The notes under the pieces: model-generated
What the model was told of the DNA's origin: nothing
Database searches by the model: none
What the model saw: the letters and a program-made list of their open reading frames with translations, nothing else
Shown: in pieces, positions 1,363 to 8,117 of the stretch
How the letters are laid out: each line of letters opens with the position of its first letter
Numbering within the stretch: position 1 is the stretch's first letter
Made by a program: the position numbers and the translations under genes
Sequence record: OQ411014.1
Length of the DNA stretch: 64,000 bases
Source: Escherichia phage EJP2
Reading direction: 5' to 3' (one strand)

Positions 1363-1753
1363 AATTCAATCCAGATGTTATATAGTACTGAACAAAGAAC
1401 TCCAGATGCCTGTCGGTAAAGCTGCTGTACAGGTTGGTCATGCGATGGATCAGGTTTGGGGAGCTTTCTGTAATATGACTTCACAACCTACCATGTCTTT
1501 GTTGGGTAACCTGAAGTACATGGAAGACTTTTCCAAATGGAAAGATGAAGGCCGTAAGAAAGTAACACTAGGTGCTAAGAACGACGCTGAAGTTCAGAAA
1601 TATAAAGACAAACTCCTTGATGCGGGTTATACTGTGTTTGATATCGTTGACTACGGAATCAATTTCTTTGATGGTGTAACCAGGACTGGTATTGTAGTCT
1701 TTCCAGTACTGAATGCTATCCCTGAACTAAAACGTTTACAGGTATTCAAATGA
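1355..1753 (+). CDS. PTH2-like peptidyl-tRNA hydrolase domain protein (132 aa)
   Basis: Motif YIVLNKELQMPVGKAAVQVGHA resembles PTH2 core (hydrophobic strand, GK, AAQ..HA); ATGA start/stop overlap with upstream gene. Confidence 0.45.
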   Translation: MSEIQSRCYIVLNKELQMPVGKAAVQVGHAMDQVWGAFCNMTSQPTMSLLGNLKYMEDFSKWKDEGRKKVTLGAKNDAEVQKYKDKLLDAGYTVFDIVDYGINFFDGVTRTGIVVFPVLNAIPELKRLQVFK

Positions 1754-2172
1754 AAGAATTCAACCGTGCAGAAGCTATAGCAGAGGCTTATGAGAAAATA
1801 AAAAACAATGAACTACGTCTAAAGGATGTATCTCAATCGAATAAGCATCGTGAAACTGACGAATACGTATTGTATTTCAACCCATATGCTGGTATGTTCA
1901 TCTTACGAATGAACTTGGAATGTATCCTAGATACAAACCAGAATCGGACGTTATTATTTTATTCGACCGATGAACCAGATGAAGCATTAGTACCAGTACA
2001 GAACGGTATTGGTAGTATAATTGTACACCCTTATAAATCTGAAGCTGAACAGTTCCAGCGTACTTTGGTCGAAGAAGATTATCCTGACGTTGAAACTATG
2101 AAACAGATTCAATATATTGTTGAGTATATCAAAAGTACACATTTCGGAGGCGTTGATGCAGTACAAGAATAG
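1750..2172 (+). CDS. hypothetical protein (140 aa)
   Basis: ORF track; ATGA overlap coupling; C-terminal SEAEQFQRTL motif. Confidence 0.55.
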   Translation: MKEFNRAEAIAEAYEKIKNNELRLKDVSQSNKHRETDEYVLYFNPYAGMFILRMNLECILDTNQNRTLLFYSTDEPDEALVPVQNGIGSIIVHPYKSEAEQFQRTLVEEDYPDVETMKQIQYIVEYIKSTHFGGVDAVQE

Positions 2173-2521
2173 TTATGCAGTCCAACTCGGTACTATGCTG
2201 GCTTTTACTTTCCTGAACGGTTTGTTTGCGTTCTTTTCTCCTAGTACTCCAGAAGTACCAGCACAGGGTCAAGAGAAAGTACTCAAGATTGAAACCATCC
2301 GTCAGGACGTAACTTCATACACTCAAGTACTGAAAAAAGCCGATACGTGTGAAAAGGTAACTGATAAAGAAGAAAATGATTTCTATAGTTGTCCTGACAG
2401 TACTACTATTTCTATGGTACACTGGACTCGTAGCCCAGACCGTAAAGGTGTGGTAACAAAATACTATGACAAGGATAAGAACCTGTTGATGATCTATGGT
2501 CATCCAGATGATGTTTACTAA
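2156..2521 (+). CDS. hypothetical protein (121 aa)
   Basis: ORF track 2117..2521 trimmed to ATG preceded by GGAGG RBS. Confidence 0.5.
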   Translation: MQYKNSYAVQLGTMLAFTFLNGLFAFFSPSTPEVPAQGQEKVLKIETIRQDVTSYTQVLKKADTCEKVTDKEENDFYSCPDSTTISMVHWTRSPDRKGVVTKYYDKDKNLLMIYGHPDDVY

Positions 2522-2530
2522 GGATATATA

Positions 2531-2968
2531 ATGCAATCGTACTTCTCCATAATTACCGATGTACTCGCAGAATATACCAAACCAGAACAGTGGACACCAA
2601 TCAAATCAGACGTAGGAGAACGCTACCGTTCAGTACTGGATGGTAGTGTCCTGTCCGTATCTAAAGCATTGATTGGTTTCATTTACAATGGAGACAAAGC
2701 ACCAGTCCAGGAATTGACTGTGAACATTTTTGCTAACTCGAAGTATTTTGTATTTGTAGACCGAAATACCAACAAGGTAAGAATAAAGACCAGTGTAGGC
2801 AGTACTGGTATTATGACGAGTAAGGTACTTTCTACTTTAGTTCCAGAAGATGAGTATTTTCATTTGATGTTATCATCTGATGAGTATCAGATATCCTATG
2901 AAGAGCAGAAAATATTGCTCAAGTTCATAGAACTCGCAAAGTGGGTACACAGGAAAAATAATCGTTGA
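2531..2968 (+). CDS. hypothetical protein (145 aa)
   Basis: ORF track; TAAGGA RBS. Confidence 0.55.
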   Translation: MQSYFSIITDVLAEYTKPEQWTPIKSDVGERYRSVLDGSVLSVSKALIGFIYNGDKAPVQELTVNIFANSKYFVFVDRNTNKVRIKTSVGSTGIMTSKVLSTLVPEDEYFHLMLSSDEYQISYEEQKILLKFIELAKWVHRKNNR

Positions 2969-2993
2969 CAGTACTGCTAGGTGTGCGTATAAT
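2965..2993 (+). promoter_or_regulatory. sigma70-type promoter TTGACA N17 TATAAT
   Basis: Canonical hexamers; CAGTACTG abuts the -35 box. Confidence 0.55.
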
Positions 2994-3033
2994 CACTTCA
3001 TAACGAAATGACTTAAACACTAAGGATAACAAA

Positions 3034-3291
3034 ATGGCTAACGTAATTCGCTCTCGAAAAATGATTTCTGGTAATGACCTTCGCTATCTGAACAACTATC
3101 GTCATCTTTTCCAACAGTTGGGTAAAGGTGTAAAAATGACAGTTATTACTGATACCATTCAGGAACCAGAAGACATTTTTGGTGTATACCATAGCGTTTT
3201 CAATCTATACATCAAACGTGGTCTGTTGGACGTAAAAACCATTACTGAAATTGATGACGATGAAGAGATGGAGAATTTCCTGTTCCTATGA
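3034..3291 (+). CDS. hypothetical protein (85 aa)
   Basis: ORF track; AAGGA RBS. Confidence 0.55.
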   Translation: MANVIRSRKMISGNDLRYLNNYRHLFQQLGKGVKMTVITDTIQEPEDIFGVYHSVFNLYIKRGLLDVKTITEIDDDEEMENFLFL

Positions 3292-3434
3292 ATAATGAAT
3301 ACTACAATGCTTGGTCGTACGCGATTGAGTTTTGTCGAAAGTACGACATATGCACGAGTACTAAAAAATGGAAACCGTGGGAGAAGAAATTCTTCTTCTA
3401 CATTTATAACCTAAAATTAGGACGTGAGGTGTAA
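3288..3434 (+). CDS. small hypothetical protein (48 aa)
   Basis: Uninterrupted frame ATG..TAA found by hand; ATGA overlap with upstream stop; below ORF-track size cutoff. Confidence 0.35.
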   Translation: MNNEYYNAWSYAIEFCRKYDICTSTKKWKPWEKKFFFYIYNLKLGREV

Positions 3435-3457
3435 CATGCCAGAACCATTAGATCGTG

Positions 3458-3973
3458 ATGATGATTTCATGGATGAACGCTATGGTGATAAGGATGAGTA
3501 GATTCCTTACACTAGCTGATGTAATCAAGGAGGCTAATGATTATCTTGACAGTAAACCAGTGTTCAATGATAATGCAAAGGATACAAGAACATCTTTCGT
3601 CCCGAATTTGATTAACACTGCGTACGCTAATATTATTGACGTATTCGTGTGTCCACGCTATGCTATTTTCAAATTCCGTGATGTTGAGAATCTCGTGGAG
3701 TATCAACTATCAGTTCTTCCGTGGCGTAGTGGATTTTCGTTTATGTCATGGGATGATAGTTATATTGATGACGGTGAAGACATGCGGCATCTTTCAATGG
3801 GGTTTATTACATCAGAAGAACAGTTCTTCCAAGAATCGTTGAAACGTGATTTGTCATGGGTAGAATTGGTTGACGTTATCAATGCCAAGAAACTTCATGA
3901 CCGCATCTTTGAGTACTATGGTATTACACCATGTGATGATGAGCAGGACCAACTAGGTGACGTATACAAATGA
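3458..3973 (+). CDS. FFQ-motif family protein (start uncertain)
   Basis: ORF track 3455..3973; first ATG used; C-terminal TSEEQFFQESL motif. Confidence 0.5.
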   Translation: MMISWMNAMVIRMSRFLTLADVIKEANDYLDSKPVFNDNAKDTRTSFVPNLINTAYANIIDVFVCPRYAIFKFRDVENLVEYQLSVLPWRSGFSFMSWDDSYIDDGEDMRHLSMGFITSEEQFFQESLKRDLSWVELVDVINAKKLHDRIFEYYGITPCDDEQDQLGDVYK

Positions 3974-4488
3974 AAGTAGAACCGTTCAGTACTGAATTTA
4001 TGCTGGTGGACGTATCACTCTCCAATTTCAAGCGTACTATGCGAAATTCTGGAGTGCACTATTATCGTTTTAAGAATAAACGATTAGTGCATGATACGAT
4101 TCATAACACTGTAAAACTTGTATGTGAATATCAGATTGATGAAGATACTCACACAAACCAAGTTCTGCACTTCAATTACAAAACTAACGAGTTGACTGCA
4201 CTCTTTACTGTAGTTCACAATAAAGTCAAGGAAAAATTCGTAGGTAAATATAAGTTCACGCTAGACGAATGTGAGTACTTCTTACTAAGTTTATCTGCGG
4301 AGAAATATTTTCCTAGTCTACAAGATTTAGTTCAAATCAATTCAGTAGTTCAAGAATTGAAAGAAGATGTGAAGTCTTGGGATGAAGAGATGACCGCTGC
4401 CGCATATAAGCGTCGTGTTGAGAGTTTTCATAAATGGGAAATGAAAACAGGTCGGAAGTTATTTCATTATAATAGTAAGGCAAAATAA
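3970..4488 (+). CDS. hypothetical protein (172 aa)
   Basis: ORF track; ATGA overlap coupling. Confidence 0.55.
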   Translation: MKVEPFSTEFMLVDVSLSNFKRTMRNSGVHYYRFKNKRLVHDTIHNTVKLVCEYQIDEDTHTNQVLHFNYKTNELTALFTVVHNKVKEKFVGKYKFTLDECEYFLLSLSAEKYFPSLQDLVQINSVVQELKEDVKSWDEEMTAAAYKRRVESFHKWEMKTGRKLFHYNSKAK

Positions 4489-4742
4489 TGAGTGAATATT
4501 CAAACGTATTGAAAGCAATCATTGCTGATTTGGGCGAAGATTGTGCTAATGTTTCCGAAGAAGAATACCAGTTGTGGAAGATGAACTATGAAAGTCTCCC
4601 AGAGCATGATAAAGTATTCAATCTTCTAGGTGCAATGTCACAGTACTTGACTTGTGCATCTAAAGCTAGTGCAAGTATCTTAGCTACTGCGGTAGTTTGC
4701 ACAGAACGTTGGTGTAACGAAAAAGATTTGGAGAATTTCTAA
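4488..4742 (+). CDS. hypothetical protein (84 aa)
   Basis: ORF track; start overlaps upstream stop. Confidence 0.5.
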   Translation: MSEYSNVLKAIIADLGEDCANVSEEEYQLWKMNYESLPEHDKVFNLLGAMSQYLTCASKASASILATAVVCTERWCNEKDLENF

Positions 4743-4760
4743 TATATAAAAGGATTTTAT

Positions 4761-5618
4761 ATGCAACCAATAACAGTACTTAGTCTGTTCAATGGAATGT
4801 CAGGCGGGATGCTTGCTTTAAACGAAGCACAAATACCCGTACATAAGTACTATTCATCTGAGATAGATAAGTTCGCAAACGCTGAGTCCCAAGCGAATTT
4901 CCCTGATATAGTCCAGTTGGGTGATGTTACCAAGTGGAAGGAATGGGATATTGAATGGGACAAAATAGATCTACTCATGGGTGGATTTCCATGCCAGGCA
5001 TGGTCTGTGGCTGGTAAACAGGGTGGAACGAACGATCCACGTGGAATGCTATTCCATACTATGGTTGATATCTATCATCATATTAAGGCGTTGAATCCGA
5101 ACTTGAAAGTACTGTTCGAGAACGTCAAGATGAAAGAAGACTTCAAGCAATACATTGATGGTATCTTAGGAATGACACCTAAGATGATCAACTCTCAAAA
5201 CTACACTGCTCACTATCGCCAGCGATATTACTGGTACTCATCTGATAAGTACTTTATCCCGCCTCCTATCATGTCTTCCCCTTCACTGCAATCAATTCTT
5301 GATAGTGATTACACTGATAGAGAGAAATCGTACTGTATAGATGCGAACTATTGGAAGGGTGGAGATCCTAACCAGTACTTCAACAAGTCCAGGCGGCAGA
5401 TGGTGTTCATGGACCCTGATATTGATAGAGAGTACCTTATTGAAAAGGGTATAAACAAGATTGACTATCGTAAGCTAAGTGTAGTAGAATGTTGTCGTTG
5501 TCAGGGAGTGCCGGATGATTACTTTAAAGTGTCCAGCAATACCCAAGCGTACAAGATGTTAGGTAACGGGTGGACTATCCCAGTCATCGCTCACTTATTA
5601 CGTGATATATTCTTTTGA
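4761..5618 (+). CDS. DNA (cytosine-5)-methyltransferase
   Basis: C5-MTase motifs in order: I LFNGMSGG, IV GFPCQAWS, VI ENV, C-terminal GNGWTIPV; RBS AAAGGA. Confidence 0.8.
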   Translation: MQPITVLSLFNGMSGGMLALNEAQIPVHKYYSSEIDKFANAESQANFPDIVQLGDVTKWKEWDIEWDKIDLLMGGFPCQAWSVAGKQGGTNDPRGMLFHTMVDIYHHIKALNPNLKVLFENVKMKEDFKQYIDGILGMTPKMINSQNYTAHYRQRYYWYSSDKYFIPPPIMSSPSLQSILDSDYTDREKSYCIDANYWKGGDPNQYFNKSRRQMVFMDPDIDREYLIEKGINKIDYRKLSVVECCRCQGVPDDYFKVSSNTQAYKMLGNGWTIPVIAHLLRDIFF

Positions 5619-5648
5619 TATAATACTATGACTTACAAAGGAGAGCAT

Positions 5649-6218
5649 ATGAACTTTATCAAGTTCAATACATCTGAGTCAGAAGCATACTTTGATACAA
5701 ATAATAAATTCAATATTATTCTAAAAGACGGAACAGTTATTATCGGAGTATCATTACTATCATTTGATGGTGAAAACCGCAAAACTGTTTATAAATTCAC
5801 CAATCTTGATGGTGATTACTGGGATACATCAGATGTATCTAAAATTTGCACACATTATGTATTTGAATCAATTGAAGTTGGTGATGGATGGGCGTTGACT
5901 TGTAATGGTAATAAAGTATTTTCTGGTAACATATTTGGGGTAATCACCGAAAAGGAAATAGTAGACCATCATCTTCATGTCCTCAATGATACTGCTAACA
6001 CTTATACACCTGATAATATCAACCTTCGCGATATTGTAACATATACTGATTGTAATGGTTTCAGTCATAAAGCAATCGTAACTGAAGTCAAAAAACCAAG
6101 AAATTATTTCGACCACGGTGTAATTGAAGTATATATGGTAGATGTTGATAAACAATACTTTGAACATTTCACTTATACTGGTTGGGATAAATTCCTAACC
6201 GTTATTGAAGAATATTAG
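5649..6218 (+). CDS. hypothetical protein (189 aa)
   Basis: ORF track 5628..6218 trimmed to ATG with AAGGAG RBS. Confidence 0.55.
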   Translation: MNFIKFNTSESEAYFDTNNKFNIILKDGTVIIGVSLLSFDGENRKTVYKFTNLDGDYWDTSDVSKICTHYVFESIEVGDGWALTCNGNKVFSGNIFGVITEKEIVDHHLHVLNDTANTYTPDNINLRDIVTYTDCNGFSHKAIVTEVKKPRNYFDHGVIEVYMVDVDKQYFEHFTYTGWDKFLTVIEEY

Positions 6219-6272
6219 GATTACTCGTGTTCTTGATACATTTTTTACTAATTCAATGAGGTTTTTTATAGT

Positions 6273-6791
6273 ATGCCAAATACAAACAATTACAATATTC
6301 CGTCACTTGCTACTGCCAAATCAGACCGCATTAGTGAACAAAAAGAATATGTGAAACGCCGTACGGATGGTGGTTTTTGTCCAGAAAAGGGTGACCGCGT
6401 ATTCTTCCAAACAACCGACCGTGATGGTAATATTGGTCGCAGTGGTTATGGTAAAGTTAGTGGTAAACATCAGTACAGTTCAAAACACTACATGTACTTT
6501 ATAGACTGTGATGATGCTACAATAGAGAATGTTGTTGTTGGACATCCTAGTGGTTTCTATCCAAAGGACTTTATCCAGTTGGAATCAATGTATAATAAAG
6601 ATAAAGAACTCAAACCTGAAGTTGTACCAAAAGAATACTTTGGTCTATATGACTTCAGAACTCAACGAGTTGAACTTGGAAGTCTATTCACATACCGTTC
6701 TGATACGTTTGAGTATGCAACATCGAAGTACGGAAACCCATTACCACATAATTTAACGATTCGTGCATTCATCATACACGAAAAGTTATAA
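6273..6791 (+). CDS. hypothetical protein (172 aa)
   Basis: ORF track; followed by terminator. Confidence 0.55.
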   Translation: MPNTNNYNIPSLATAKSDRISEQKEYVKRRTDGGFCPEKGDRVFFQTTDRDGNIGRSGYGKVSGKHQYSSKHYMYFIDCDDATIENVVVGHPSGFYPKDFIQLESMYNKDKELKPEVVPKEYFGLYDFRTQRVELGSLFTYRSDTFEYATSKYGNPLPHNLTIRAFIIHEKL

Positions 6792-6798
6792 ATCATAC

Positions 6799-6823
6799 GG
6801 AGTCTTTTTTTAGACTCCTTTTA
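6799..6823 (+). terminator. rho-independent terminator
   Basis: GGAGTCT/AGACTCC hairpin with T-rich loop and tail. Confidence 0.55.
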
Positions 6824-6850
6824 AATTGAATATCCACACTAGGAGTTGTA

Positions 6851-7231
6851 ATGAATCAATTAGATTGGCTAGACAAAGCTCTTGAAAAGATGCGAGCCGA
6901 AGATCCTGAAGTCCTGCACAGAAAGTTATTCGGATTTAGTGCCGCCGAATTTGAACAGTACTGCAACGATTTGACATTCTTTGATGAAGCCAAAACTGTT
7001 CTTGACTTTATGAAGAGCAAAGACTACACGATCATTAACATCTATGATACTGATGATTTTGAGTTACCTTCTCGGATGTTCTTACATTATTTCGAATCTT
7101 ACTGTACTGAAGGATACGATGAATCCTTTTGGAGTGGGTATGGTGCACATACATTGACACATGATGAATTGCAGTTACAATATCTTTTCGTTAATGGTCA
7201 GGGGACTGAACATTTCTTTCGGATTATCTAA
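6851..7231 (+). CDS. hypothetical protein (126 aa)
   Basis: ORF track; TAGGAG RBS. Confidence 0.55.
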   Translation: MNQLDWLDKALEKMRAEDPEVLHRKLFGFSAAEFEQYCNDLTFFDEAKTVLDFMKSKDYTIINIYDTDDFELPSRMFLHYFESYCTEGYDESFWSGYGAHTLTHDELQLQYLFVNGQGTEHFFRII

Positions 7232-7233
7232 CT

Positions 7234-7602
7234 ATGTATGAAGATTACAAAGTAGTACTGGAACCTAAACATCTTGTAAAAATAAAACAAATTTATAAAA
7301 GAGCACATGAGTCCAATGAACCACATTCTTACATTGTAAATAACACAATGTTTTATCTGTGTAAGGGTTTTGCAACAATGACTCGTTCTGGTGGTAATTT
7401 TTATGTAATTTCACAAATGCATAATGACCACATAGAAATCTTCAAAATGAGTTCAATGGGAAAAATTACACATAGCCATACACTCAAATATTGTAATGAT
7501 GAAGACTATTTGTTTCAACTTTCCCTTGTGTGTGATTTTGATTTGACATTAGACGATATGAATCTTATGATTGGTATCCGAGACAATATAGTAAAGGAAT
7601 AA
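7234..7602 (+). CDS. hypothetical protein (122 aa)
   Basis: ORF track. Confidence 0.5.
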   Translation: MYEDYKVVLEPKHLVKIKQIYKRAHESNEPHSYIVNNTMFYLCKGFATMTRSGGNFYVISQMHNDHIEIFKMSSMGKITHSHTLKYCNDEDYLFQLSLVCDFDLTLDDMNLMIGIRDNIVKE

Positions 7603-7603
7603 A

Positions 7604-7816
7604 ATGAAATACCTAATAAAAGAAGTGTTTGCATTTCTGTATGTGTTGCTGTTGAGTATAGGCTCAATTACGTTAGCTCTTACTCCTTCAATTGTGTACC
7701 AATTCATTTGTGTATCAAATGATTATAACTTCGATGAAACGATCCATTTCACATTACGTGTTTTTGGCTTCATTGTGTGGTTATGTGCATTTAGTTATTT
7801 TATGAACAGGAAATAA
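7604..7816 (+). CDS. small membrane protein (70 aa)
   Basis: ORF track; hydrophobic segments. Confidence 0.5.
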   Translation: MKYLIKEVFAFLYVLLLSIGSITLALTPSIVYQFICVSNDYNFDETIHFTLRVFGFIVWLCAFSYFMNRK

Positions 7817-7817
7817 T

Positions 7818-8117
7818 ATGAACAAGCACGAAGTAATTATCTTTGACCGGAAAGTATTCGTACCAACCGAGAACAGTACTGAATCGTACTATCTCATCAA
7901 TGAGATCATGTCCGCAACTAGTACTAGCTGTGAGCAGAAACCAGGTGAGTACATCTTCAGTCAGACCATTGGGTATTATCGTTACAAAGAAAAAGAACAT
8001 TTTGACATTGATTCTGAAAAAATCATTGCAGTACTGAAAGAATGTGGCTATAATGAATGTATTGAAAACGACACTACCTTACCAGTTGTCGTGTTTACAC
8101 TAAACCCAACCATCTAG
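7818..8117 (+). CDS. hypothetical protein (99 aa)
   Basis: ORF track. Confidence 0.5.
   Translation: MNKHEVIIFDRKVFVPTENSTESYYLINEIMSATSTSCEQKPGEYIFSQTIGYYRYKEKEHFDIDSEKIIAVLKECGYNECIENDTTLPVVVFTLNPTI

Follow-up and report, generated by a model that had tools for sequence, protein, structure and literature searches.

Positions 4761 to 5618 of the 64,000-nucleotide stretch of Escherichia phage EJP2 DNA that we analysed (sequence record OQ411014.1; the whole stretch is called the window below) are occupied, on the plus strand, by an open reading frame (ORF) that runs from an ATG to a stop codon and encodes 285 amino acids. The ORF list and matches to Pfam PF00145 and NCBIfam TIGR00675 mark it as the complete coding sequence (CDS), stop codon included, of a cytosine-5 (C5) DNA methyltransferase, and direct reading of the sequence gives a Shine-Dalgarno-like AAGGA (4750-4754, plus strand) 6 nucleotides 5' of the ATG. 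We consider it probable that the product is an active, stand-alone enzyme with which EJP2, a RaK2/121Q-like jumbo phage, methylates its own genome, most likely at CCWGG, as an anti-restriction measure. The gene is not a new discovery. In NCBI a protein 100% identical to its product is entered as "DNA-cytosine methyltransferase [Escherichia phage EJP2]", and the enzyme is an ordinary orphan phage C5 methylase; the paper on EJP2 discusses neither methylation nor the methylase gene.

The EJP2 methylase matches the C-5 cytosine DNA methylase profile PF00145 with 132.8 bits (E=2.4e-38; cutoff 22) and passes the TIGR00675 cutoff of 100.65 with 126.5 bits. Its match to PHROG 116, 'DNA methyltransferase', spans the whole protein (E=2e-62), and HMMER searches of PDB sequences returned M.HhaI (E=1.5e-19) and the catalytic domain of DNMT3A (E=1.3e-18). 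The structure that AlphaFold2 predicts from a 92-homolog alignment, with a mean predicted local distance difference test score (pLDDT) of 93.7 and a predicted template modelling score (pTM) of 0.91, has the two-lobed fold composed of a Rossmann catalytic domain and a small recognition domain. All canonical C5 motifs are found in the standard order in the HMMER alignment to M.HhaI, and the key motif residues are invariant in the 92-homolog alignment. A sequence-only reading of the locus had described a compact 285-aa C5 methyltransferase with the canonical motif order and had staked its case on the presence of the catalytic cysteine in an alignment. The profiles, the motifs and the homolog alignment confirm this description, and the cysteine, Cys78, is invariant in all 92 homologs.

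Motif I, the S-adenosylmethionine (SAM)-binding loop, is F10-N-G-M-S-G-G16 (4788-4808, plus strand, as are all motifs given here) in the alignment to M.HhaI, with F10, G12 and S14 invariant in the 92 homologs; it has the FxGxSG form, like DNMT3, and not the FxGxGG form. In the same alignment motif II is represented by E34 and motif III by G54-D55. Motif IV, G75-F-P77-C78-Q79 (4983-4997), contains the TGC codon of the catalytic Cys78 at 4992-4994, and motif VI, E120-N121-V122 (5118-5126), is invariant in the alignment and pairs with the ENV of M.HhaI. Motif VIII, R153-Q-R155-Y-Y (5217-5231), in which R153 and R155 are invariant, is followed by the target-recognition region (residues about 160-235; 5238-5465), which precedes motif IX. 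The core of this region, DR-KSYCIDANYWKGG-QYFNKSRRQ (residues 186-213), is near-invariant family-wide, as judged by conservation among the 92 homologs. Motifs IX-X, from R237-K-L to G268-N269-G-W271 (5469-5573), align with domain 2 of M.HhaI, and R237, G268 and N269 are invariant. In line with the established mechanism of C5 methyltransferases, the target cytosine would be flipped out of the DNA, Cys78 of the PCQ motif would attack its C6, and the methyl group of SAM would be transferred to C5.

The gene is conserved throughout a lineage of virulent phages. Full-length orthologs detected by tblastn carry annotations in over 40 jumbo phage genomes of the RaK2/121Q-like group, with protein identities of 84.6% in Erwinia phage Hallingskeid (CDS_0275), about 75-76% in 121Q (gp91), PBECO4, phAPEC6 and about 30 other coliphages, 74-76% in XbC2, Kaldavass, Pectobacterium CBB and Cronobacter GAP32, and 59.6% in Klebsiella RaK2 (gp194) and K64-1; orthologs of 52% identity are found in coliphages of roughly 145-150 kb (alia, PaulScherrer). 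The jumbo-phage orthologs resemble the EJP2 methylase in having equal length, the same motifs and the same recognition-domain core, and they too are set among small early-type genes with no nuclease. Over recognition core residues 184-216, identity to EJP2 is 97% in Hallingskeid, 85-91% in the Asteriusvirus orthologs and 73% in RaK2. In comparisons with the Hallingskeid and ELP-22 orthologs, the nonsynonymous divergence (dN) was 0.12-0.20 and synonymous sites were saturated, which indicates strong purifying selection on the gene. The RaK2 ortholog (3995-4888 of the RaK2 stretch examined) has PCT in motif IV with an 8-residue insertion directly after it, whereas EJP2 has PCQ; together with a methylated CpG-containing site mentioned for RaK2 DNA, this suggests that specificity in the Klebsiella (RaK2) branch may have drifted. 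RaK2 gp194 was proposed in 2013 as a protector of phage DNA (PMC3622015), and the Sharanji paper and the paper of Korf et al. give annotation labels only. The automatic names 'HaeIII', 'HpaII' and 'DNMT2' attached to relatives are unsupported labels, and we rejected them as evidence of specificity.

In five Asteriusvirus relatives (A4, JNE01, TH47, ph0011 and UE-S1) the tblastn match breaks in two at residue 78. The A4 methylase CDS (1732-3630 of the A4 stretch) is a single ORF of 632 aa that includes an in-frame intein of 346 aa (CFPAGT...VVHN) with Hint and LAGLIDADG homing-endonuclease domains, placed between P77 and the catalytic C78; the catalytic cysteine of the A4 methylase would also serve as the +1 extein nucleophile. 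The EJP2 methylase is the intein-free allele, with an empty homing site at the junction of P77 and C78 (4989-4994). Inteins home into functionally constrained, conserved sites, and an intein at the catalytic cysteine of relatives counts toward functional constraint on the methylase.

Information on the target comes from the methylomes of phages that carry orthologs. Nanopore sequencing of native versus amplified Hallingskeid DNA found modification only at GATC, as N6-methyladenine (6mA), and at CCWGG, as 5-methylcytosine (5mC), and both motifs were confirmed with E. coli Dam and Dcm models (PMC11780129). In the same study the modified motifs of Kaldavass, whose ortholog is 75% identical, were GATC, CCWGG (5mC) and TGCAT (PMC11780129), and 5mC at CCWGG in these ortholog-bearing phages is indirect support for the predicted C5 transfer. 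The sole other predicted methylase of Hallingskeid, CDS_0623, belongs to the Dam family (PF05869, E=1e-31); this phage has one Dam-type and one C5 enzyme, and two modified motifs. Since their recognition cores are 97% identical, the EJP2 and Hallingskeid methylases very probably share specificity. Where the sequence-only reading had called the target unknown, the Hallingskeid methylome and the shared recognition core narrow it to probably CCWGG, and it is towards this motif, the most likely candidate, that we lean.

The frequencies of restriction sites in the window show extreme avoidance. GCGC is absent (0 versus 73 expected), as are RCCGGY, YGGCCR, CYCGRG and GGYRCC (each 0 versus 18 expected) and many 6-bp palindromes, among them AAGCTT, CTGCAG, CCATGG, GGTACC, GCATGC, CAGCTG, CTCGAG and GGATCC (expected about 7-21 each). 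GATC stands at half of expectation (108 versus 215-245) and TTAA at 0.27-0.54 of it; CCWGG and GCWGC stand at 1.2 times expectation. There are 56 CCWGG sites versus 46 expected and no CCSGG site, versus 27 expected by a zero-order model and 10 by a second-order Markov model, and the same combination of kept CCWGG and purged CCSGG is seen in 58 kb of Hallingskeid. This pattern fits CCWGG methylation directed against CCWGG/CCNGG cutters, with the unprotectable CCSGG sites removed by selection. In 50 kb of phage KarlJaspers, which has its own unrelated CCWGG methylase, CCWGG occurs 125 times versus 65 expected and CCSGG twice versus 51. Enrichment of CCWGG with depletion of CCSGG may generally mark phages that depend on Dcm-type protection.

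It is plausible that the methylase acts on the replicating phage genome, most probably at the inner cytosine of CCWGG, and that it has the specificity of Dcm but reaches it through an unrelated recognition domain. Progeny genomes would then resist the CCWGG/CCNGG cutters of enterobacterial hosts (EcoRII and SsoII/StyD4I/Ecl18kI types) regardless of the presence of Dcm in the preceding host, and the unprotected CCSGG subset, together with most other GC-rich palindromes, would instead have been purged from the genome. Protective anti-restriction methylation, as the sequence-only reading proposed, would be the most reasonable role of the enzyme.

Several points weigh against CCWGG as the target. 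The site pattern does not separate methylation by the phage from methylation by host Dcm, and GCWGC is kept at the same ratio as CCWGG (1.21), so that the retention is not specific to CCWGG. According to the authors of the Hallingskeid study, the GATC and CCWGG modification could be the work of host methylases (PMC11780129), and Dcm, which is usual in E. coli hosts, could alone explain the retention of CCWGG. The EJP2 methylase is not a Dcm ortholog (NF007772, 24.9 bits versus a cutoff of 710), and a methylated CpG-containing site was mentioned for RaK2 DNA, as data not shown, in the RaK2 paper (PMC3622015). PDB sequence, profile and fold searches revealed no similar recognition domain in any characterised enzyme; their matches were only DNMT3, M.HhaI, M.HaeIII, M.MpeI, Dnmt2 and Dcm, and the likeness lies in the catalytic core or the overall fold. 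We also tried two weak tblastn matches as bridges and dropped both: the one in CobraSix falls in a large fusion that carries an N6-adenine methylase annotation, and the one in Omnitron has no C5-methylase-like ORF of at least 120 aa. From the wider literature, the BASEL paper did not find methylases to be linked in any simple way to resistance against restriction, and the RIMS-seq2 paper leaves its CCWGG motif without an assigned methyltransferase gene.

The possible contribution of the host in Hallingskeid and Kaldavass (PMC11780129), the bisulfite remark on RaK2 and the lack of similarity between the recognition domain and that of Dcm would all suit an active orphan C5 methyltransferase with another target, such as a motif containing CpG or some other short sequence, in which case the CCWGG methylation of the relatives would come from host Dcm. 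The closest solved folds, DNMT3A/B and M.MpeI, are moreover CpG enzymes. We think this unlikely, although no other alternative survives as well. The comparison of native with amplified DNA was made in two ortholog-bearing phages and gave no further cytosine motif in Hallingskeid (PMC11780129), and both Hallingskeid and Kaldavass have as many modified motifs as phage methyltransferases. The window contains 1719 CG dinucleotides, and methylation at all CpG sites would stand out; CpG-wide methylation was not reported in Hallingskeid or Kaldavass (PMC11780129).

The functions of phage methylases can extend past the evasion of restriction, and such enzymes can even set off retron defences. It is conceivable on this ground that the protein has a non-canonical activity, for instance as a 5-carboxymethylcytosine transferase or a Dnmt2-like tRNA methylase, or that it serves chiefly in regulation or packaging. 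However, the best matches by both sequence and fold are DNA methyltransferases (DNMT3, M.HhaI and M.HaeIII), no CmoA-like carboxy-SAM synthase was seen beside the gene, and nanopore models specific for E. coli Dcm fit the CCWGG signal of the relatives as 5mC (PMC11780129). We therefore regard such a role as improbable.

The sequence-only reading had suggested that the target relates to the GTAC core of an over-represented palindrome. The palindrome itself is real. In the window GTAC occurs 659 times versus 215 expected, AGTACT 240 times versus 21, and the 8-bp palindrome CAGTACTG 84 times versus 0.7 expected by a zero-order model and 3.6 in second-order Markov simulations. Copies of CAGTACTG (for example at 139, 340, 1704, 2631, 2800, 2969, 3987, 6956 and on to 61832) have a median spacing of about 630 bp, and 71 of the 84 fall within ORFs, where two codon phases (x-Val-Leu or Ser-Thr) account for nearly all of them; literature matches to CAGTACTG were primer sequences only. 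The excess of GTAC palindromes is common to Hallingskeid, 121Q, ELP-22, A4 and RaK2 and is absent in the unrelated KarlJaspers.

Methylation of the GTAC core of this (C)AGTACT(G) palindrome would agree with its huge over-representation, with the joint occurrence of palindrome excess and methyltransferase in all sampled relatives, and with the five AGTACT sites inside the methylase gene. To our knowledge, however, the known methylases of the GTAC family are N6-adenine or N4-cytosine enzymes (M.CviQI, M.KpnI, M.ScaI and M.RsaI), which counts against this idea. GGTACC is wholly avoided in the window (0 versus about 6-7 expected), and such avoidance would be needless if GTAC were protected. The Hallingskeid data also count against it: GTAC is equally in excess in this phage (555 versus 172 expected in 49 kb, or one per about 88 bp; CAGTACTG, 61 versus 0.6), the recognition core is 97% identical, and yet GTAC is not among the modified motifs (PMC11780129). 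The tie between methylase and palindrome is thus unsupported, and we judge it very improbable.

No nuclease signature was found in ORFs within about 2.5 kb on both sides of the methylase gene. The nine flanking ORFs (3034-8117) have no significant Pfam match, and their PHROG matches, where there are any, are of unknown function only; PADLOC, with which seven of these ORFs were scanned along with the methylase, gave no defence-system match for them, and NCBIfam gave no match for the two immediate neighbours. There is no Vsr-like gene among the flanking ORFs, and elsewhere in the window neither a Dam gene nor another C5 methylase nor an intein relative is present. The genes around the ortholog differ among Hallingskeid, ELP-22, RaK2 and A4, and the only semi-conserved neighbour is an ORF of 84 aa (4488-4742) that lies directly upstream in EJP2, ELP-22 and A4. 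We confirmed 540 members of the methylase family in species-representative genomes and compared the neighbourhoods of 80 loci from bacteria and metagenome-assembled genomes. No restriction enzyme or nuclease recurs among the neighbours there; those that do recur are single-stranded DNA-binding protein (SSB), helicase and other C5 or N6 methyltransferases, and the context of these loci is that of a prophage replication module.

Thus, the EJP2 methylase has no partner restriction enzyme, a well-supported conclusion to be read with the caveat that restriction enzymes can escape profile searches, and the sequence-only reading of a solitary gene with no adjacent nuclease is borne out both by the profile and defence-system scans and by the 80-locus comparison. 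The locus does not combine a methylase and an endonuclease of shared specificity, as a type II restriction-modification system does. That the gene nevertheless supplies the methylase of a restriction-modification or toxin-like system with a nuclease that has diverged beyond recognition is the least probable reading that we considered: restriction enzymes evolve fast and often lack a Pfam match, all neighbours are of unknown function, and the 84-aa ORF is immediately upstream in three of the phages, but this ORF is smaller than restriction enzymes typically are, its homolog lies 2.5 kb from the methylase in Hallingskeid and was undetected in the RaK2 locus sampled, the downstream neighbour (ORF 5628-6218) has its 121Q homolog 7 kb from the methylase, and neither a recurrent nuclease neighbour in the 80 other loci nor a PADLOC match was found.

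Among characterised enzymes, E. coli Dcm and M.EcoRII share their chemistry with the EJP2 methylase and probably also its target sequence, and hence would give like protection from EcoRII-type enzymes. Dcm has 472 aa as compared with 285, BLASTP aligns motifs IV-VI and IX only, and the EJP2 protein falls outside the Dcm subfamily as defined by the NF007772 score and an alignable recognition domain. M.HhaI (GCGC) and M.HaeIII (GGCC) have their own cognate restriction enzymes, whereas the EJP2 methylase is without one; since GCGC is absent from the window, GCGC is not what the EJP2 methylase protects. The 'Dcm-like' protein bas06_0055 of KarlJaspers (Drexlerviridae) is likewise a compact orphan phage C5 methylase that acts at CCWGG, and it triggers retron Ec86. 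It has, however, 236 aa with PPC and ENP motifs and belongs to a different family (best BLASTP E=0.11 against the EJP2 methylase), and it was rejected as an informative homolog because the two proteins are unrelated.

The nearest solved folds are the catalytic domains of DNMT3B and DNMT3A, with a Foldseek template modelling (TM) score of 0.80 over the full length. A profile of the methylase family searched against PDB also placed DNMT3B/3A first (E=1e-34), narrowly above M.HhaI (123 versus 114 bits). The catalytic domain of eukaryotic DNMT3A/3B/3C is about 285 aa, as is the EJP2 methylase. In motif I the EJP2 sequence SLF-N-G-M follows the DNMT3-type pattern SLF-D/N-G, and in motif X, LGNGWTIPVIAHLL of EJP2 and LGRSWSVPVIRHLF of DNMT3 share the pattern LG-x-x-W-x-x-PVI-x-HL. 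The EJP2 methylase is a bare catalytic domain of 285 aa without the PWWP and ADD domains or the DNMT3L partner of DNMT3, its recognition region is unrelated in sequence to that of DNMT3, and DNMT3 targets CpG. Judged by sequence and model, the resemblance to DNMT3 appears to be one of the bare catalytic domain. We tentatively raise the possibility, which we ourselves doubt, that this family, with thousands of members, typically of about 270-340 aa, in phages and prophages, is the closest prokaryotic-virus relative of the DNMT3 catalytic domain and that it gained a Dcm-like CCWGG specificity independently, by way of a minimal recognition region of DNMT3 size.

The surroundings of the gene are mosaic. 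The window as a whole has patchy nucleotide identity of 90-95% to Asteriusvirus jumbo phages such as 121Q and PBECO4, and the EJP2 methylase allele resembles that of the Erwinia phage more closely than those of the E. coli Asteriusvirus phages. A sharp boundary lies at 5616-5619, at the stop codon of the methylase: DNA 3' of it (5616 onward) is 91-95% identical to Asteriusvirus phages, and the methylase and the genes upstream have no megablast match in Asteriusvirus. In 121Q the methylase and the homolog of ORF 5628-6218 are about 7 kb (gp92-gp110) apart, and EJP2 lacks the intervening stretch. A scan of 3000-7000 for promoters and terminators gave counts no higher than chance. A perfect hairpin at 6799-6818 (GGAGTCT-TTTTTT-AGACTCC, then TTTT), between the ORFs at 6273-6791 and 6851-7231, has features of a bidirectional intrinsic terminator; such sites occur at chance frequency in the region.

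In conclusion, EJP2 carries a conserved orphan C5 methyltransferase that probably methylates the phage genome. Orphan phage methylases are textbook knowledge, and the finding has modest practical value and leaves current understanding unaltered; the GTAC palindrome merits separate investigation, independent of the methylase gene. The DNMT3-like fold is a curiosity for methyltransferase evolution. If the family were indeed akin to DNMT3 and specific for CCWGG, it would be an analogue of Dcm and would offer a tractable bacterial model of the de novo methyltransferase fold, or perhaps be the family from which this fold evolved. Host defences can sense phage C5 methylases, as the unrelated phage Dcm that triggers retron Ec86 illustrates, and this bears on the prediction of host range. 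If CCWGG is the target, the DNA of EJP2 and related jumbo phages would resist Dcm-sensitive enzymes in the laboratory, and EJP2 and related therapeutic jumbo phages would have built-in immunity to restriction of the EcoRII and SsoII types, irrespective of whether the production host has Dcm.

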